64,000 bases of DNA from Escherichia coli. GTDB lineage: Bacteria > Pseudomonadota > Gammaproteobacteria > Enterobacterales > Enterobacteriaceae. Below, one piece after another: positions 5,719 to 26,936 of this stretch. The stretch's first letter is position 1. The number at the start of each line of letters is the position of its first letter. The DNA lies in the NCBI RefSeq assembly GCF_003334405.1, contig NZ_QOWM01000010.1, one strand, 5' to 3'. A program made the position numbers and the translations under genes. The notes beneath the pieces are model-generated. The model saw only the letters and a program-made list of their open reading frames with translations. It ran no database searches and had not been told where the DNA came from.

Positions 5719-6912
5719 ATGAACAAAAACAGAGGGTTTACGCCTCTGGCGGTCGTTCTGATGCTCTCAGGCAGCTTAGCCCTAACAGGATGTGACGACA
5801 AACAGGCCCAACAAGGTGGCCAGCAGATGCCCGCCGTTGGCGTAGTAACAGTCAAAACTGAACCTCTGCAGATCACAACCGAGCTTCCGGGTCGCACCAG
5901 TGCCTACCGGATCGCAGAAGTTCGTCCTCAAGTTAGCGGGATTATCCTGAAGCGTAATTTCAAAGAAGGTAGCGACATCGAAGCAGGTGTCTCTCTCTAT
6001 CAGATTGATCCTGCGACCTATCAGGCGACATACGACAGTGCGAAAGGTGATCTGGCGAAAGCCCAGGCTGCAGCCAATATCGCGCAATTGACGGTGAATC
6101 GTTATCAGAAACTGCTCGGTACTCAGTACATCAGTAAGCAAGAGTACGATCAGGCTCTGGCTGATGCGCAACAGGCGAATGCTGCGGTAACTGCGGCGAA
6201 AGCTGCCGTTGAAACTGCGCGGATCAATCTGGCTTACACCAAAGTCACCTCTCCGATTAGCGGTCGCATTGGTAAGTCGAACGTGACGGAAGGCGCATTG
6301 GTACAGAACGGTCAGGCGACTGCGCTGGCAACCGTGCAGCAACTTGATCCGATCTACGTTGATGTGACCCAGTCCAGCAACGACTTCCTGCGCCTGAAAC
6401 AGGAACTGGCGAATGGCACGCTGAAACAAGAGAACGGCAAAGCCAAAGTGTCACTGATCACCAGTGACGGCATTAAGTTCCCGCAGGACGGTACGCTGGA
6501 ATTCTCTGACGTTACCGTTGATCAGACCACTGGGTCTATCACCCTACGCGCTATCTTCCCGAACCCGGATCACACTCTGCTGCCGGGTATGTTCGTGCGC
6601 GCACGTCTGGAAGAAGGGCTTAATCCAAACGCTATTTTAGTCCCGCAACAGGGCGTAACCCGTACGCCGCGTGGCGATGCCACCGTACTGGTAGTTGGCG
6701 CGGATGACAAAGTGGAAACCCGTCCGATCGTTGCAAGCCAGGCTATTGGCGATAAGTGGCTGGTGACAGAAGGTCTGAAAGCAGGCGATCGCGTAGTAAT
6801 AAGTGGGCTGCAGAAAGTGCGTCCTGGTGTCCAGGTAAAAGCACAAGAAGTTACCGCTGATAATAACCAGCAAGCCGCAAGCGGTGCTCAGCCTGAACAG
6901 TCCAAGTCTTAA
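5719..6912 (+). CDS. acrA: Multidrug efflux periplasmic adaptor AcrA
   Basis: ORF 5683..6912; start at internal ATG (MNKNRGFTPLAVVLMLSGSLALTGC lipoprotein signal with lipobox) giving 397 aa; membrane-fusion-protein family. Confidence 0.95.
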   Translation: MNKNRGFTPLAVVLMLSGSLALTGCDDKQAQQGGQQMPAVGVVTVKTEPLQITTELPGRTSAYRIAEVRPQVSGIILKRNFKEGSDIEAGVSLYQIDPATYQATYDSAKGDLAKAQAAANIAQLTVNRYQKLLGTQYISKQEYDQALADAQQANAAVTAAKAAVETARINLAYTKVTSPISGRIGKSNVTEGALVQNGQATALATVQQLDPIYVDVTQSSNDFLRLKQELANGTLKQENGKAKVSLITSDGIKFPQDGTLEFSDVTVDQTTGSITLRAIFPNPDHTLLPGMFVRARLEEGLNPNAILVPQQGVTRTPRGDATVLVVGADDKVETRPIVASQAIGDKWLVTEGLKAGDRVVISGLQKVRPGVQVKAQEVTADNNQQAASGAQPEQSKS

Positions 6913-22496: not shown

Positions 22497-22955
22497 TTAT
22501 TCGATGGGTAAAGAAGTGGTGTATTTAATCTGTTCCATCGCGAAGCTGGAAGTGACGTCCGACAGCCCCGGCACGCTGTTTACCAGACGCTTATAAAACT
22601 CGTCGTAGCGTTTCATGTCGGCAACCTGGACGCGCATCAGATAATCGTATTCACCAGCCATGCGCCAGAACCCCAGCACTTCTGGCATTTCGGTAACCAC
22701 CGTGACAAAGCGGCAATACCATTCGCTGCTGTGATGTTGCGTTTTTATCAGCACAAAAGCGGTCAGGCCGAGGCCTATTTTTTCCGGATCCAGCAGGGCG
22801 ACTTTGCCGATAAGGATACCGTCGTCCTCCAGCCGTTTCAGGCGCTTCCAGCAAGGGGTGGTTGTCAGATTAACGGCTTCAGCCAGTGCCTGCAAAGAGA
22901 GGGTGCAATCCTGCTGCAGTAAGGCCAGCAGCTTACGGTCAATTTTATCTAACAT
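22497..22955 (-). CDS. decR: Lrp/AsnC-family transcriptional regulator DecR (YbaO)
   Basis: ORF 22497..23183; start at [31 protein letters not shown] gives 152 aa; N-terminal HTH and C-terminal RAM domain. Confidence 0.9.
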
Positions 22956-23107
22956 AGCCCTTCCACAGAGAATTTTTTTCTCTTTTAATTTTATTTTAAA
23001 GGTGAAATCACGACAATTTATTCTGTGCGGTTTAAACACCACGGCACAAAATGACAAATTCAACGCAAAAAAAACCGGGCAATTGCCCGGTGCTGGAAGG
23101 GATCTCG

Positions 23108-23926
23108 TTATTCGGGGGAATAAGGTAGATGTGGATAGTCCAGCCAGTGCGTCAAATAGTGAGAGACAGCCTGATTTCGGCAATGTCCAATCACCGGTAA
23201 ATGCGGGAGCTCCGCGCGCAGTTGCGGCATCGCATTGCCCATAATAAATCCGCTACCGACGCTGACTAACATTTCGCGATCGTTCATCGCATCACCAAAG
23301 GCCATGCAATCGCGCAACGATAAACCTAAATGTTGGGTCAGCACCGTCAATGCAGCGCCTTTATTGCAGCCCACCGGCAGCACTTCGAGGCAATCCGTGG
23401 CGGAAAAACACAAATGTGCACGCTCGCCTAATGCTTCGTATAGCTGGATCTGCAAGCGTGTAAGATCGTCGTGATCGCCACAGAAGCAGATCTTGGTGAC
23501 GCTGCCGAGTGGCATTTTTTTGACATCGATTATCTGATAACGAAAACCGCTATAGACAAATGCCTGCAACAACGCAGGGATCTCTTTCCCGGTAAACCAA
23601 CCGTCGTCATTGAAGATATGCATGCTGGCTCGGGTATCCCATTGCTGATACAGCACCAGCTCCGCGACATCCGCAGGTAAATCATCACGATGTAAAAGTT
23701 CACCTTCCAGAGAATGCACGCGCGTTCCGTTGCCGGTAATCAAATACGCATCCAGCGATAGCGCCCCGAGAATATGCTGCATCTCCAGCGCATGACGCCC
23801 CGTGGCAAAAGTGAGGGTAATGTCGCGTTCACGCAGTCGCGCCAAAGTAGAGAGGGTTTTCTCACCTAAATGATGGTCAGGCATCAATAAAGTGCCATCC
23901 ATATCAAATGCTGCCAGACGAGCCAT
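23108..23926 (-). CDS. cof: HMP-PP phosphatase Cof (HAD superfamily)
   Basis: 272 aa from [14 protein letters not shown] (HAD motif I DxDGT); C-terminal GDAMND motif. Confidence 0.92.
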
Positions 23927-24025
23927 TTCTTTCTCCACTCTGTGACACGGTTAATGGTGATTGAGTATCACCTGATATATACGGAAGTAATAGTGAATAG
24001 TTAAATAATATTGTTCCGGGTTTAT

Positions 24026-25726
24026 ATGCGATTGCTCAACCGTCTTAACCAGTATCAACGTCTGTGGCAACCTTCCGCCGGAAAGCCGCAAACCGTCACC
24101 GTCAGCGAACTGGCCGAACGCTGTTTTTGCAGCGAACGCCATGTTCGTACGCTGTTGCGTCAGGCACAGGAGGCGGGATGGCTGGAGTGGCAGGCGCAGT
24201 CAGGACGCGGAAAGCGCGGACAATTACGCTTTCTGGTCACGCCGGAATCGCTACGCAATGCGATGATGGAACAGGCACTGGAAACCGGAAAGCAGCAAGA
24301 TGTGCTGGAGCTGGCGCAACTGGCCCCAGGTGAGCTGCGCACTCTGTTACAGCCGTTTATGGGCGGACAATGGCAAAACGATACACCCACGTTGCGTATT
24401 CCCTACTATCGCCCGCTCGAACCGCTACAACCAGGCTTTTTGCCCGGCCGTGCCGAGCAGCATCTCGCCGGGCAGATATTTTCCGGCCTGACCCGCTTCG
24501 ATAATAATACTCAGCGCCCGATTGGCGATTTAGCGCATCACTGGGAAACCTCTACTGACGGGTTACGCTGGGACTTTTATCTTCGTTCAACCCTACACTG
24601 GCATAACGGCGATGCAGTAAAAGCCTCACACTTACACCAGCGATTATTGATGCTGTTACAACTGCCAGCACTGGATCAATTATTTATTAGCGTGAAGCGT
24701 ATTGAAGTCACCCATCCGCAGTGTCTGACCTTCTTTTTACATCGCCCTGATTACTGGCTTGCGCACCGGCTGGCGAGCTATTGCAGCCATCTGGCGCATC
24801 CGCAATTCCCACTGATCGGCACGGGTCCTTTTCGCTTAACACAATTCACAGCAGAGCTGGTGCGCCTGGAAAGCCATGATTATTACCATTTACGTCATCC
24901 GCTGCTTAAAGCGGTTGAGTACTGGATAACTCCGCCGCTTTTCGAAAAAGATTTGGGAACCAGTTGTCGGCATCCCGTGCAAATCACCATCGGCAAACCG
25001 GAGGAGCTGCAACGGGTCAGCCAGGTCAGTAGCGGCATCAGTTTAGGTTTTTGCTATTTGACGTTGCGCAAAAGTCCCCGACTCTCCCTCTGGCAGGCGC
25101 GAAAAGTGATCTCCATTATTCATCAATCCGGTTTATTACAAACGTTAGAAGTCGGAGAAAACCTGATCACCGCCAGTCATGCATTACTGCCAGGCTGGAC
25201 TATTCCGCATTGGCAGGTACCGGATGAAGTCAAACTACCGAAAACCTTGACGCTGGTTTATCACCTACCGATAGAACTTCATACCATGGCAGAACGCCTA
25301 CAGGCGACACTGGCAGCGGAAGGCTGTGAACTCACAATTATTTTTCATAACGCAAAAAACTGGGACGACACGACCCTACAGGCACACGCAGACCTCATGA
25401 TGGGCGACAGATTAATTGGCGAAGCACCGGAATATACTCTGGAGCAATGGCTGCGCTGCGATCCGCTGTGGCCACATGTTTTCGACGCTCCAGCATACGC
25501 ACATCTACAATCGACACTGGATGCCGTGCAAATAATGCCTGATGAAGAAAACCGATTTAATGCCCTGAAAGCGGTTTTTAGCCAGTTAATGACAGATGCG
25601 ACGCTGACGCCGCTGTTCAACTATCACTATCGCATTAGTGCCCCTCCCGGCGTGAACGGTGTGCGACTGACACCGCGCGGCTGGTTTGAATTTACCGAAG
25701 CCTGGCTTCCCGCGCCATCGCAATGA
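24026..25726 (+). CDS. ybaE: YbaE, SgrR-like protein with solute-binding-protein family 5 domain
   Basis: ORF 24011..25726 (TTG); probable start at the ATG at 24026 (MRLLNRLNQYQRLWQ), 566 aa; N-terminal HTH-like region fused to a periplasmic-binding-protein-like domain. Confidence 0.88.
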   Translation: MRLLNRLNQYQRLWQPSAGKPQTVTVSELAERCFCSERHVRTLLRQAQEAGWLEWQAQSGRGKRGQLRFLVTPESLRNAMMEQALETGKQQDVLELAQLAPGELRTLLQPFMGGQWQNDTPTLRIPYYRPLEPLQPGFLPGRAEQHLAGQIFSGLTRFDNNTQRPIGDLAHHWETSTDGLRWDFYLRSTLHWHNGDAVKASHLHQRLLMLLQLPALDQLFISVKRIEVTHPQCLTFFLHRPDYWLAHRLASYCSHLAHPQFPLIGTGPFRLTQFTAELVRLESHDYYHLRHPLLKAVEYWITPPLFEKDLGTSCRHPVQITIGKPEELQRVSQVSSGISLGFCYLTLRKSPRLSLWQARKVISIIHQSGLLQTLEVGENLITASHALLPGWTIPHWQVPDEVKLPKTLTLVYHLPIELHTMAERLQATLAAEGCELTIIFHNAKNWDDTTLQAHADLMMGDRLIGEAPEYTLEQWLRCDPLWPHVFDAPAYAHLQSTLDAVQIMPDEENRFNALKAVFSQLMTDATLTPLFNYHYRISAPPGVNGVRLTPRGWFEFTEAWLPAPSQ

Positions 25727-25790
25727 ATAGCTGGTCCGGGTTAATCGCAGGCGTTACCATAACGCTTTTATTGTTCAAGCAGGATTATCT

Positions 25791-26486
25791 ATGAAACGTG
25801 CTGTCGTTGTGTTCAGTGGAGGTCAGGATTCCACCACCTGTCTGGTGCAGGCATTACAACAATATGATGAAGTCCATTGCGTGACGTTCGATTACGGTCA
25901 GCGGCATCGCGCAGAAATCGACGTGGCACGCGAACTGGCGCTGAAACTGGGGGCACGCGCGCATAAGGTGCTGGATGTCACCCTGCTCAACAAGCTGGCG
26001 GTCAGTAGCCTGACGCGTGACAGCATTCCGGTGCCTGATTATGAACCTGAAGCCGATGGTATCCCGAATACGTTTGTCCCAGGGCGTAATATTTTGTTCC
26101 TGACGCTGGCGGCAATATATGCGTATCAGGTAAAAGCAGAAGCCGTAATTACTGGCGTCTGCGAAACGGATTTCTCCGGCTACCCGGATTGCCGCGATGA
26201 GTTTGTGAAAGCACTAAACCATGCCGTCAGTTTGGGCATGGCGAAAGATATTCGTTTTGAAACGCCGCTGATGTGGATTGATAAAGCGGAAACCTGGGCG
26301 CTGGCAGATTATTACGGCAAACTGGATTTAGTCCGTAACGAAACGTTGACCTGCTATAACGGCTTTAAAGGCGACGGTTGCGGTCATTGTGCGGCATGTA
26401 ATTTACGCGCCAACGGTTTGAATCATTATCTGGCCGATAAACCGACGGTGATGGCAGCGATGAAGCAGAAAACCGGGTTGAGGTAA
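25791..26486 (+). CDS. queC: 7-cyano-7-deazaguanine synthase QueC
   Basis: 231-aa ORF with PP-loop SGGQDS near the N-terminus and C-terminal Zn-binding Cys cluster (CGHCAAC). Confidence 0.95.
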
Positions 26487-26499
26487 TTATTCCGGGTGT

Positions 26500-26524
26500 C
26501 GCCGGATGCGGCTTGAGCATCCGG
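26500..26524. repeat. REP-like palindromic hairpin between convergent queC and fadM
   Basis: gccggatgc-ggcttga-gcatccggc seen directly. Confidence 0.6.
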
Positions 26525-26537
26525 CACCACAAAACGT

Positions 26538-26936
26538 TTACTTAACCATCTGCTCCAGCTTTTCGCGCAATTCCCCTTCCAGAGCTAATGCTTTCTGCGT
26601 TTTAAGATCAATACAAACAAACGTAATAAGCGCATCCGCTACCACCTGCCCTTCCGGCTCCAGTGTAATGACCTGGCTTAAGATGCCGCTTTTACCGTTT
26701 AATTGCTGCAACTGACTGGTAATAGTTAACAGGTCACTTAATACCGCTGGGCGACGATAGTTAATATTGATATTGACCACGACGAAGGCGATGTTATGGG
26801 CCGTCATCCACTGAAAACTGTCGCTATTTTCCAACCCATCCCAGCGGGCTTCTTCGAGAAATTCAAGGTAGCGGGCGTTGTTGACGTGCTGGTAAACGTC
26901 GAGATGATATCCACGAACTTTGATTTGTGTTTGCAT
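26538..26936 (-). CDS. fadM: Long-chain acyl-CoA thioesterase III FadM (YbaW)
   Basis: 132-aa ORF, 4HBT/hot-dog thioesterase (MQTQIKVRGYHLDVYQHVNNARYLEFLEEARW). Confidence 0.93.
   Translation of the reverse strand: MQTQIKVRGYHLDVYQHVNNARYLEFLEEARWDGLENSDSFQWMTAHNIAFVVVNININYRRPAVLSDLLTITSQLQQLNGKSGILSQVITLEPEGQVVADALITFVCIDLKTQKALALEGELREKLEQMVK

Follow-up and report, generated by a model that had tools for sequence, protein, structure and literature searches.

A conserved two-part DNA element between cof and ybaE suggests that the SgrR-type protein YbaE controls cof in Escherichia coli

Which gene does YbaE of Escherichia coli control, and from which site on the DNA? Its regulon is not taken up in any of 18 papers in which ybaE is mentioned. 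We examined the gene within a window of 64,000 nucleotides (the whole stretch of DNA that was analysed). The ybaE DNA is 100% identical to ybaE of E. coli K-12 MG1655, which RefSeq names 'SgrR family transcriptional regulator', and it has a match in 5425 of 5426 complete E. coli genomes. A 2009 paper placed YbaE in clade 2 of the SgrR homologues (PMC2760817), so that, together with the RefSeq name, the architecture of the protein is not new. ybaE is an ordinary, already annotated gene, and what our analysis adds is a regulatory hypothesis of modest novelty that can be tested. Beside ybaE lies a DNA site in two parts, strongly conserved, which suggests that YbaE may control the divergent gene cof. 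Table 1 lists the features discussed here.

Table 1. Features of the cof-ybaE-queC region, with positions in the window and the basis of each call
Feature	Position	Strand	Basis or remark
cof (HMP-PP phosphatase, Cof-type HAD-IIB), divergent gene, proposed direct target	23108..23926	-	NCBIfam NF011705
cof TSS (approximate)	23956..23957	-	SMRT-Cappable-seq table; 5' UTR of about 30 nt, Shine-Dalgarno GGAG
Probable cof -10 hexamer GATACT	23964..23969	-	AGTAT kept in loci aligning there; 7-8 nt upstream of cof TSS
Left operator-like element ATATACGGAAGTAATAGTGAATAG	23977..24000	.	Contains CGGAAG at 23982-23987; overlaps cof -35 region
Spacer, variable in sequence, fixed in length	24001..24010	.	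Between left and right elements
Right operator-like element TTGTTCCGGGTTT	24011..24023	.	GTTCCG (24013-24018) is in inverted orientation to CGGAA
ybaE coding sequence, 566 aa + stop	24026..25726	+	ORF list; RefSeq annotation of identical K-12 sequence
SgrR_N winged-helix DNA-binding domain + helical linker, residues 7-119	24044..24382	+	Pfam PF12793, E 5.3e-39; AF2 model
Family-5 (cluster C) solute-binding-protein fold, presumed ligand-sensing, residues ~120-566	24383..25723	+	Pfam, SgrR profile, Foldseek
queC own TSS (approximate), context only	25766..25767	+	ybaE-queC spacer; 25 nt upstream of queC ATG 25791; TACCAT possible -10

The first-pass annotation had read YbaE as a protein like SgrR, in which a DNA-binding N-terminal part is fused to a family-5 solute-binding protein, and Pfam, the RefSeq annotation and the 2009 clade placement (PMC2760817) bear this out. 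Both profiles are found, SgrR_N at the N-terminus (Table 1) and SBP_bac_5 (PF00496) at residues 165-303 (E 1.3e-16), the latter sequence match covering the N-terminal lobe. The AlphaFold2 model (pLDDT 89.8, pTM 0.86) agrees with PF12793 in its topology: residues 3-69 form an H-beta-H-H-beta-beta winged helix (H3-14, E22-24, H26-33, H37-49, E53-56, E65-69), followed by the full two-lobe binding-protein fold. Foldseek matches this model to NikA, DppA, OppA, CntA and MppA (E ~1e-28 to 1e-24), with about 510 aligned columns and TM scores of 0.66-0.70 relative to the target. YbaE has no hydrophobic N-terminal segment (the top Kyte-Doolittle 9-residue mean over the first 60 windows is 0.53, compared with 2.5 for its secreted neighbour YbaV), and the winged helix is present, so the protein is not the ordinary periplasmic one, with a signal peptide and no helix-turn-helix, that had been named as the outcome that would overturn the early reading. 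Pfam, Foldseek and hydropathy thus give a family-5 fold with no export signal, and no permease or ATPase genes lie within 6 kb on either side of ybaE or in 67 related loci. As far as sequence can tell, YbaE is cytoplasmic. It is most likely a one-component transcription factor, in which the winged helix is predicted to bind DNA and the non-exported family-5 fold to sense a small molecule; we know of no solved structure and no confirmed ligand for the sensors of the SgrR family.

YbaE aligns with E. coli SgrR at 27% identity over 579 columns (E 9e-55), and the SgrR profile covers residues 8-564, i.e., the full length. Its score against the SgrR equivalog NF010149 is 231.9 bits, below the cut-off of 476 for SgrR proper, and the neighbourhood of SgrR proper (divergent sgrS/sgrT, setA/thiBPQ) is absent at ybaE, whose neighbours are cof and queC. 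Judged from these comparisons, YbaE is a paralogue, not an orthologue, of SgrR. Three further YbaE relatives (P0123, P0124 and P0127; 34-38% identity by BLASTP) were tried as a check on the linkage with cof. Their contexts (GFO/IDH oxidoreductases, a PTS EIIBC gene, a TetR/fimbrial region) are unrelated, and these proteins therefore belong to other clades and are uninformative on cof.

Cof itself scores 551.5 bits against NCBIfam NF011705 (cut-off 336); its second-best NCBIfam hit, at 221 bits, is YigL, which makes the phosphatase of the SgrR-SgrS circuit the closest named relative of Cof. cof and ybaE are divergent in 67 of 67 orthologous loci and at a 46%-identical orthologue. Because these genera keep the order of genes throughout the region from mdlA to ppiD, lying next to cof counts for little when taken alone. 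A divergent 272-aa ORF in another locus (L075), considered as a possible Cof, turned out to be a shikimate dehydrogenase homologue. The divergence from cof had been recognized in the first-pass annotation, which gave the gap both as 87 bp and as 23927..24025. RefSeq lets cof begin with the ATG at 23926. Among 31 aligned rows, two have spacer insertions and do not align at this point; wherever the alignment extends to the start of cof this ATG is kept, unlike the in-frame GTG at 23938, and the gap is therefore 99 bp. At the other end, third-codon-position variation in the aligned loci sets in at the ybaE ATG, and insertions upstream of it are not multiples of three.

According to the SMRT-Cappable-seq supplementary table (PMC6131387), the cof (b0446) TSS is at 467382 forward and is detectable under standard conditions. 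The TSSs of neighbouring genes in the same table are by themselves sufficient to place it within 23930-23980. For the position in Table 1 we used a single offset that fits hupB, ppiD, glnK, decR, cof and queC together; the exact position (+/-1) depends on U00096.3 coordinates of hupB, ppiD and glnK, which we take to be correct. Another conversion, by way of the K-12 record and the position of sgrR, was rejected: it puts the TSSs of cof and decR within the respective coding sequences, and Cof would lose its catalytic Asp. Scanning 23850-24100 revealed neither a full sigma-70 consensus promoter nor a terminator; the cof -35 is therefore weak, which fits dependence on an activator. For ybaE, no TSS is given in the SMRT-Cappable-seq supplement, which does list cof, queC and decR (PMC6131387), and the accessible part of the Cappable-seq supplement (PMC4782308) has no entries for the cof-ybaE region. 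A palindrome at 23956-23972 (GGTGAT-TGAG-TATCACC) was considered as a CRP-like site and set aside: the spacing differs by one from what such a site needs, and only Escherichia and Citrobacter keep the palindrome.

Upstream of the cof -10 lies the bipartite element. Both halves are found in 67 of 67 orthologous loci, from Escherichia to Erwinia and Winslowiella, and the left-to-right offset is 30 bp in every one. Mean pairwise identity is 0.91 for the left half, 0.93 for the right half and 0.52 for the spacer (23 diverse loci for element and spacer), compared with 0.44 for third codon positions of ybaE. The distance from the element to the cof ATG is 53-59 bp in 64 of the 67 loci; on the other side, over all 67, the ybaE ATG can be as close as 0 bp or as far off as 277 bp (in E. 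coli the right half ends 2 bp before the ATG). A search of the 64-kb window for the half-site pattern CGGAAS-N24-28-STTCCG gives a single match, against 0.08 expected by chance. Of the two targets proposed at first, the evidence favours cof, to whose promoter the conserved element is tied in position, and speaks against queC, which is transcribed from a separate TSS and is split from ybaE in Erwinia persicina.

The sgrS-sgrR spacer offers a direct comparison. The SgrR operator was taken here from the sequence footprint of that spacer, and Vanderpool & Gottesman (2007) reportedly described the SgrR binding site. With SgrS starting at 6160 of the sgrR locus (L076) by Rfam, the conserved blocks of this spacer, TAATATAGGGAA in the sgrS promoter and GGAGTTCCCCTTTTATG before sgrR, sit equivalently to the left and right halves of the cof-ybaE element, which they also resemble in sequence. 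The arrangement is GGAA-N28-TTCC at sgrS-sgrR and GGAA-N27-TTCC at cof-ybaE. At both loci the centre of the left half falls at about -28 relative to the TSS of the divergent gene, and a few bases separate the right half from the regulator ATG. The right half also resembles AGAGTTCCTCATTTAA upstream of alaC, a documented SgrR target (PMC4021124), where there is one half-site-like match only and not an inverted pair. A GGAA-N26-TTCC inverted repeat is found upstream of a third clade of the SgrR family; the background of such repeats is 2 in 492 window tiles.

SgrR activates sgrS and represses its own transcription. By analogy, and from the sequence evidence above, we lean slightly towards the reading that YbaE is a cytoplasmic SgrR-type regulator that binds the element, most likely activating cof and repressing itself. 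The primary operator would be 23977-24000 plus 24011-24023, with the inverted half-sites CGGAA(G/C) and GTTCCG, about three helical turns apart, bound by a YbaE dimer. The left half would act from its overlap with the weak cof -35, centred near -28 as in the SgrR-activated sgrS promoter, and the right half adjoins the 5' end of ybaE. Ligand-bound YbaE would then activate cof and repress ybaE, as SgrR does at sgrS and sgrR, and the output would be an HAD phosphatase made directly and not via an sRNA. The ligand might, as a guess, be a phosphorylated metabolite open to hydrolysis by Cof. We infer all three of these points, namely YbaE as the binder of the element, the sign of the regulation and the ligand. 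Since the element overlaps the cof -35, the bound protein could also repress cof instead of activating it, and autoregulation of ybaE is suggested purely by analogy because ybaE has no TSS on record. If operator and target hold, YbaE gains a regulon and cof gains a regulator, and paralogous circuits with and without an sRNA become comparable for the rewiring of a stress response after duplication. The first-pass reading repeats the existing annotation; what is gained beyond it is the proposal of a specific operator and a specific target, each easily tested.

A bolder extension, possible but rather doubtful, is that YbaE and cof form a protein-only sister of the SgrR-SgrS-YigL circuit, in which a duplicated regulator with a kept operator design would directly switch on a duplicated Cof-type HAD phosphatase when a phosphorylated metabolite accumulates. 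If true, this would be a second 'phospho-metabolite stress' response of E. coli, one with no sRNA, and neither YbaE, a y-gene regulator, nor the control of cof would remain an orphan. Candidate ligands in this sister circuit are HMP-P/HMP-PP, pyridoxal phosphate or a sugar phosphate.

The alternative that survives best, though we regard it as unlikely, is that the conserved element is only the ybaE promoter or autoregulatory site, or the site of some other regulator of cof, and that the targets of YbaE lie elsewhere on the chromosome. Vibrio cholerae DsvR (VCA0578), an SgrR-like activator of zapC, sets such a precedent: zapC, sugar uptake and pili, which it controls, are unlinked to it, and its putative 11-bp box is directly upstream of its own start codon (preprint 10.64898/2026.04.01.715812). 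An unlinked target, alaC, is likewise known for SgrR (PMC4021124). The linkage of ybaE and cof may moreover be passive, given the gene order conserved over the whole region, and an insertion between element and cof would destroy the cof promoter too, so the fixed distance between them could be explained by that alone. Against this alternative, the element overlaps the cof -35, so that whatever binds it must affect cof; its geometry is, nearly to the base pair, that of the promoter from which SgrR activates sgrS; and the pairing of cof with ybaE outlasts that of ybaE with queC.

This last point bears also on queC. Regulation of queC (queuosine/preQ0 synthesis) by YbaE, or a co-transcribed functional unit of the two, would suit a gene 64 bp downstream on the same strand, in an order kept in most loci. 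We nevertheless consider it quite improbable: queC is listed as a single-gene unit and has a separate TSS, some 25 nt ahead of the queC ATG (465572 reverse for b0444 according to the SMRT-Cappable-seq table, PMC6131387, converted with the cof TSS offset), the half-site pattern is found nowhere else in the window, and in Erwinia persicina ybaE and queC are split by 3.5 kb of unrelated genes whereas cof still adjoins ybaE.

Still less probable is that the conserved block acts as RNA, either as a structured or riboswitch-like 5' leader of ybaE or as a short divergent sRNA, with CGGAAG pairing with GTTCCG. The arms are indeed complementary over 5-6 bases, and the block abuts the ybaE start codon, where E. 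coli has no Shine-Dalgarno. However, the sole variable arm position changes with no covariation (G/G in E. coli, C/G in Buttiauxella, C/C in Winslowiella), and even in the several genera that carry an insertion of 20-277 bp on the ybaE side of the block, ahead of the ATG, its distance to cof stays fixed. The sgrS-like small RNA or ORF that had been looked for in the gap is absent: Rfam gives no match in 23000-26600 even at E<=1, the same search detecting SgrS beside sgrR as a positive control, and no conserved small ORF lies in the gap, the sole ORF inside it being a 20-codon GTG frame (23942-24004) that overlies the promoter and the operator-like element. With the 5' UTR and promoter of cof already in it, the 99-bp gap is too short to fit an sRNA gene as well. 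Finally, it is scarcely credible that YbaE serves an ABC transporter as an ordinary binding protein exported to the periplasm, which is what some orthologue names in databases ('peptide ABC transporter substrate-binding protein'), two papers that call it periplasmic and its NikA/DppA fold would suggest, since a 113-residue winged-helix domain takes the place of a signal peptide, permease and ATPase genes do not adjoin it, and it aligns at full length with the DNA-binding regulator SgrR. Recognizing YbaE as a regulator would correct the 'periplasmic' label still used in recent papers.

Among known systems, SgrR (b0069), which activates the sRNA SgrS under glucose-phosphate stress, is closest to YbaE. 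The two proteins have the same two-domain build (551 aa and 566 aa, respectively), with the motif CSxRHxRTLL in the recognition helix and GRGKR in the wing of both. SgrR is divergent from its known target and YbaE from its proposed one, with a bipartite conserved element at matching positions in both. The half-site flanks differ (CGGAAG/GTTCCGG at ybaE, GGGAAA/GTTCCCC at sgrR), as does the spacing (27 nt vs 28 nt), and YbaE has no sgrS/sgrT partner, its divergent gene being a protein-coding HAD phosphatase. DsvR, by its description, resembles YbaE in having an SgrR-like winged helix and SBP_bac_5, no SgrS partner and a putative box just ahead of the start codon of its gene; it differs in its genomic context and in having an unlinked gene, zapC, as its key target. 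NikA, DppA, OppA, MppA and CntA share the fold of the C-terminal ~450 residues of YbaE at only ~15% identity; unlike these family-5 periplasmic proteins, YbaE has no signal peptide, lipobox or transporter partner and carries a fused N-terminal DNA-binding domain. The SgrR-SgrS-YigL circuit leads to induction of the Cof-type HAD phosphatase YigL, a close paralogue of Cof, so that Cof and YigL would each be linked to one of two paralogous regulators, YbaE (a putative link) and SgrR. yigL is unlinked to sgrR and controlled post-transcriptionally via SgrS, whereas the presumed link between YbaE and cof would be direct and transcriptional.

The window keeps the gene order of the K-12 region, mdlA-decR-cof (minus strand), ybaE-queC (plus) and fadM-ybaV-ppiD (minus), and its ybaE is 100% identical to MG1655 ybaE and named "SgrR family transcriptional regulator" in RefSeq. 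Since matches are found in 5425 out of 5426 complete E. coli genomes, ybaE is a core gene. Using Pfam HMMs, we were able to identify an SgrR_N domain (residues 7-119, E-value 5.3e-39) and an SBP_bac_5 domain (residues 165-303, E-value 1.3e-16), and the N-terminus has no hydrophobic core (maximum 9-residue hydropathy 0.53, versus 2.5 for the YbaV signal peptide). From 107 family sequences, AlphaFold2 predicts with confidence (pLDDT 89.8, pTM 0.86) a winged helix (H3-14, E22-24, H26-33, H37-49, E53-56, E65-69), then three linker helices and a two-lobe alpha/beta domain. Foldseek matches in PDB are family-5 binding proteins only (NikA, DppA, OppA, MppA, CntA and SapA; E-values 1e-28 to 1e-24, about 510 columns), and neither Foldseek nor a PDB sequence search found a solved structure that combines the two domains. 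The NCBIfam SgrR model covers residues 8-564 with a score of 231.9 bits, below its cut-off of 476, and direct comparison with E. coli SgrR covers 579 columns at 27% identity (E-value 9e-55); YbaE is therefore a full-length paralogue of SgrR, not an orthologue.

The first-pass annotation, which described an HTH-like N-terminus joined to a family-5 binding-protein domain with no signal peptide, is correct but repeats existing annotation, as this architecture is not new: in 2009, Horler & Vanderpool (PMC2760817) split the SgrR homologues into clades and made E. coli YbaE, "a protein of unknown function", the defining member of clade 2. The labels "periplasmic" or "ABC transporter periplasmic binding protein", still attached to YbaE in some papers and database entries, have no support in its sequence. 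We found no study of ybaE function in the full-text literature mentioning the gene, where it appears in lists only (a Keio-collection hit for lacritin peptide resistance, and genes up-regulated under carbon limitation or in one biofilm regime).

We note several variants in public sequences (protein clusters P0023 and P0002, and NZ_OW968288.1), including an N-terminally truncated YbaE of 444 aa that lacks the winged helix (305 sequences), a QueC-YbaE fusion in one gene call (818 aa), and an ISVsa5 element inserted in ybaE of one E. coli strain. A 245-bp 'Methylobacterium organophilum' contig (L074) with 99% identity to E. coli ybaE and a 'Chryseobacterium sp.' contig (L066) with complete enterobacterial mdlA-to-ppiD synteny look like contamination or mislabelling of public assemblies.

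We collected 74 loci from species-representative genomes, 67 of which contain both cof and a YbaE orthologue (52-100% identity), and the two genes are divergent in all 67, as first annotated. The gap between them had been given as 87 bp; because cof starts in RefSeq at the ATG at 23926, which is conserved in the aligned loci together with its preceding GGAG (save two rows with spacer insertions, unaligned there), while an in-frame GTG at 23938 is not, the spacer is 99 bp (23927..24025). A search of the gap for an sRNA or ORF comparable to sgrS had also been suggested. The sRNA is absent: Rfam (4227 families, E-value up to 1) gives no match in 23000-26600, whereas the same search finds SgrS adjoining sgrR (228.8 bits) and the TPP riboswitch downstream of sgrR; among ORFs, just one 20-codon GTG frame lies wholly within the gap.

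What the spacer does contain is a bipartite block (see the table), found in all 67 loci with a left-to-right offset of 30 bp in every one. For comparison, the mean pairwise identity of ybaE third codon positions in the 23 diverse loci is 0.44. The half-sites are inverted, CGGAA(G/C) and GTTCCG, with centres 31 bp apart (about three helical turns), and a single match to the pattern is found in the 64-kb window, versus 0.08 expected by chance. The only variable arm position shows no covariation (G/G in E. coli, C/G in Buttiauxella, C/C in Winslowiella), which fits binding by a protein better than an RNA hairpin.

Features of the cof-ybaE-queC region (window coordinates)
Feature	Coordinates	Strand	Description
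ybaE	24026..25726	+	ORF, 566 aa
Left element ATATACGGAAGTAATAGTGAATAG	23977-24000		spacer alignment; mean pairwise identity 0.91 (23 diverse loci)
Inter-element spacer	between elements		10 nt, A/T-rich, variable sequence; mean pairwise identity 0.52 (23 loci)
Right element TTGTTCCGGGTTT	24011-24023		spacer alignment; mean pairwise identity 0.93 (23 diverse loci)
cof -10-type hexamer GATACT (conserved AGTAT)	23969-23964	-	TAnnnT-type, 7-8 nt upstream of cof TSS
queC possible -10 TACCAT	25755-25760	+	TAnnnT-type, 7-8 nt upstream of queC TSS

The block is tied to cof rather than to ybaE. In 64 of the 67 loci it lies 53-59 bp from the cof ATG; two Kosakonia genomes have 68 bp here, and a decaying symbiont genome has 47 bp. 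Between the right element and the ybaE ATG there are 0 to 277 bp, as several genomes of Citrobacter, Yokenella, Trabulsiella and Intestinirhabdus carry insertions at this place. No Shine-Dalgarno sequence can be recognised in front of ybaE in E. coli (24011-24028), since the conserved right element leaves only 2 nt up to the ATG; where genera have insertions there (e.g. loci L051, L022 and L049), they have acquired GAGG/AGAGG motifs. In Candidatus Pantoea persica (L068, 4399-6330), where ybaE is fragmentary (40-53% identity) and the cof match truncated, the two genes appear to be decaying together in the symbiont genome, and the block is still recognisable.

The SMRT-Cappable-seq supplementary table (PMC6131387) lists transcription start sites (TSSs) for b0446 (cof; 467382, forward), b0444 (queC; 465572, reverse, single-gene unit), b0447|b0448 (decR-mdlA; 468356, forward) and b0441 (ppiD; 461852, forward), and none for b0445 (ybaE), so a very short or absent ybaE leader is possible. 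Taking the U00096.3 coordinate as a constant K minus the window coordinate, and requiring each TSS to lie upstream of its own start codon, confines K to 491312-491362 and hence the cof TSS to 23930-23980, between the cof ATG and the block. The U00096.3 positions that we assume for hupB, ppiD and glnK give K = 491338, which puts the cof TSS at about 23956, the centre of the left half-site at about -28 of the cof promoter, and the queC TSS at about 25766, in the ybaE-queC spacer some 25 nt upstream of the queC ATG. The cof promoter has a poor match at its -35 hexamer (ATTACT), and neither strand shows a consensus sigma-70 promoter. The cof -10 hexamer and TSS are overlapped by a palindrome, GGTGAT-TGAG-TATCACC (23956-23972), that is found in Escherichia and Citrobacter and is absent from more distant genera; it looks CRP-like, though its spacing is off by one.

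Regulation of cof or queC by YbaE had been thought conceivable. The anchored block favours cof; queC, which has a TSS of its own, is independent and is disfavoured. In Erwinia persicina (L046 and L069, 6700-10150) cof and ybaE remain adjacent, and ybaE and queC are 3.5 kb apart, with genes for an RhtC-like exporter, a glutamine amidotransferase and an AraC-type regulator between them. The best-supported model is that YbaE, as a cytoplasmic ligand-sensing regulator, would bind the bipartite element, control the cof promoter and autoregulate; the weak -35 and the sgrS parallel make activation of cof more likely than repression. Its main rival is that YbaE is a regulator as assigned, but with its real regulon elsewhere. 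YbaE homologues below about 40% identity, which are other clades, lie in unrelated contexts; a 3.5-Mb genome whose YbaE orthologue is 46% identical (L077) keeps the cof-ybaE pair, with a recognisable block. We did not find the operator or the cof link in the literature searched; if true, control of cof would give a function to a still-uncharacterised K-12 regulator, and it is easily tested. In most other genera a Cds1/CdsH-like cysteine desulfhydrase gene (about 1.05 kb, 569 bits; e.g. L020 2993-4039) lies between decR and cof, which the Escherichia locus lacks, as its decR-cof interval is only 152 bp (22955-23108).

Cof passes the NCBIfam HMP-PP phosphatase equivalog model (551.5 bits), and the named relative that scores next is YigL (221 bits), a sugar/pyridoxal-phosphate phosphatase induced by the SgrR-SgrS circuit; the two regulators, themselves paralogues, would thus each have a link to one of a pair of paralogous Cof-type phosphatases. 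We compared the sgrR locus of K-12 with seven others; for three of these, from Erwiniaceae (L070-72), a setA-like gene and neighbouring thiB/thiP confirmed that they are sgrR loci. Conserved in the sgrS-sgrR spacer are TAATATA(G/C/A)GG... and GGAGTTCC(C/T)CTTTTATG. With the SgrS +1 at 6160 of the K-12 locus (L076), GGGAA has its centre at -28, the spacing to TTCCC is 28 nt, and the right block stops 4 nt short of the sgrR ATG. The CGGAA of cof-ybaE likewise has its centre at about -28, the spacing to TTCCG is 27 nt, and this right core stops 7 nt short of the ybaE ATG. The two spacers are thus of one design (ATATA-S-GGAA, about 27 nt, GTTCC-SS-TTT, ATG), and YbaE orthologues and SgrR have in common the recognition-helix motif CS(E/R)RH(V/M)RTLL and the wing GRGKR. 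SgrR reportedly requires sgrS sequence as far as about -70 and acts as an autorepressor, which we take as a lead only. A third SgrR-family clade (L079) has a perfect CAGGAACA-N-TGTTCCTG repeat upstream with 26-nt spacing; GGAA-N26-28-TTCC occurs in only 2 of 492 130-bp window tiles. Upstream of alaC, a documented SgrR target (PMC4021124), AGAGTTCCTCATTTAA (E. coli alaC locus L086, 14938-14955) lies about 135 bp before the start and is identical to the sgrR-proximal block at 12 of 15 positions, with no inverted partner half-site evident at the expected spacing. In Vibrio cholerae, the SgrR-like DsvR is reported to act through an 11-bp box, which is likewise directly in front of the regulator's start codon (preprint 10.64898/2026.04.01.715812).
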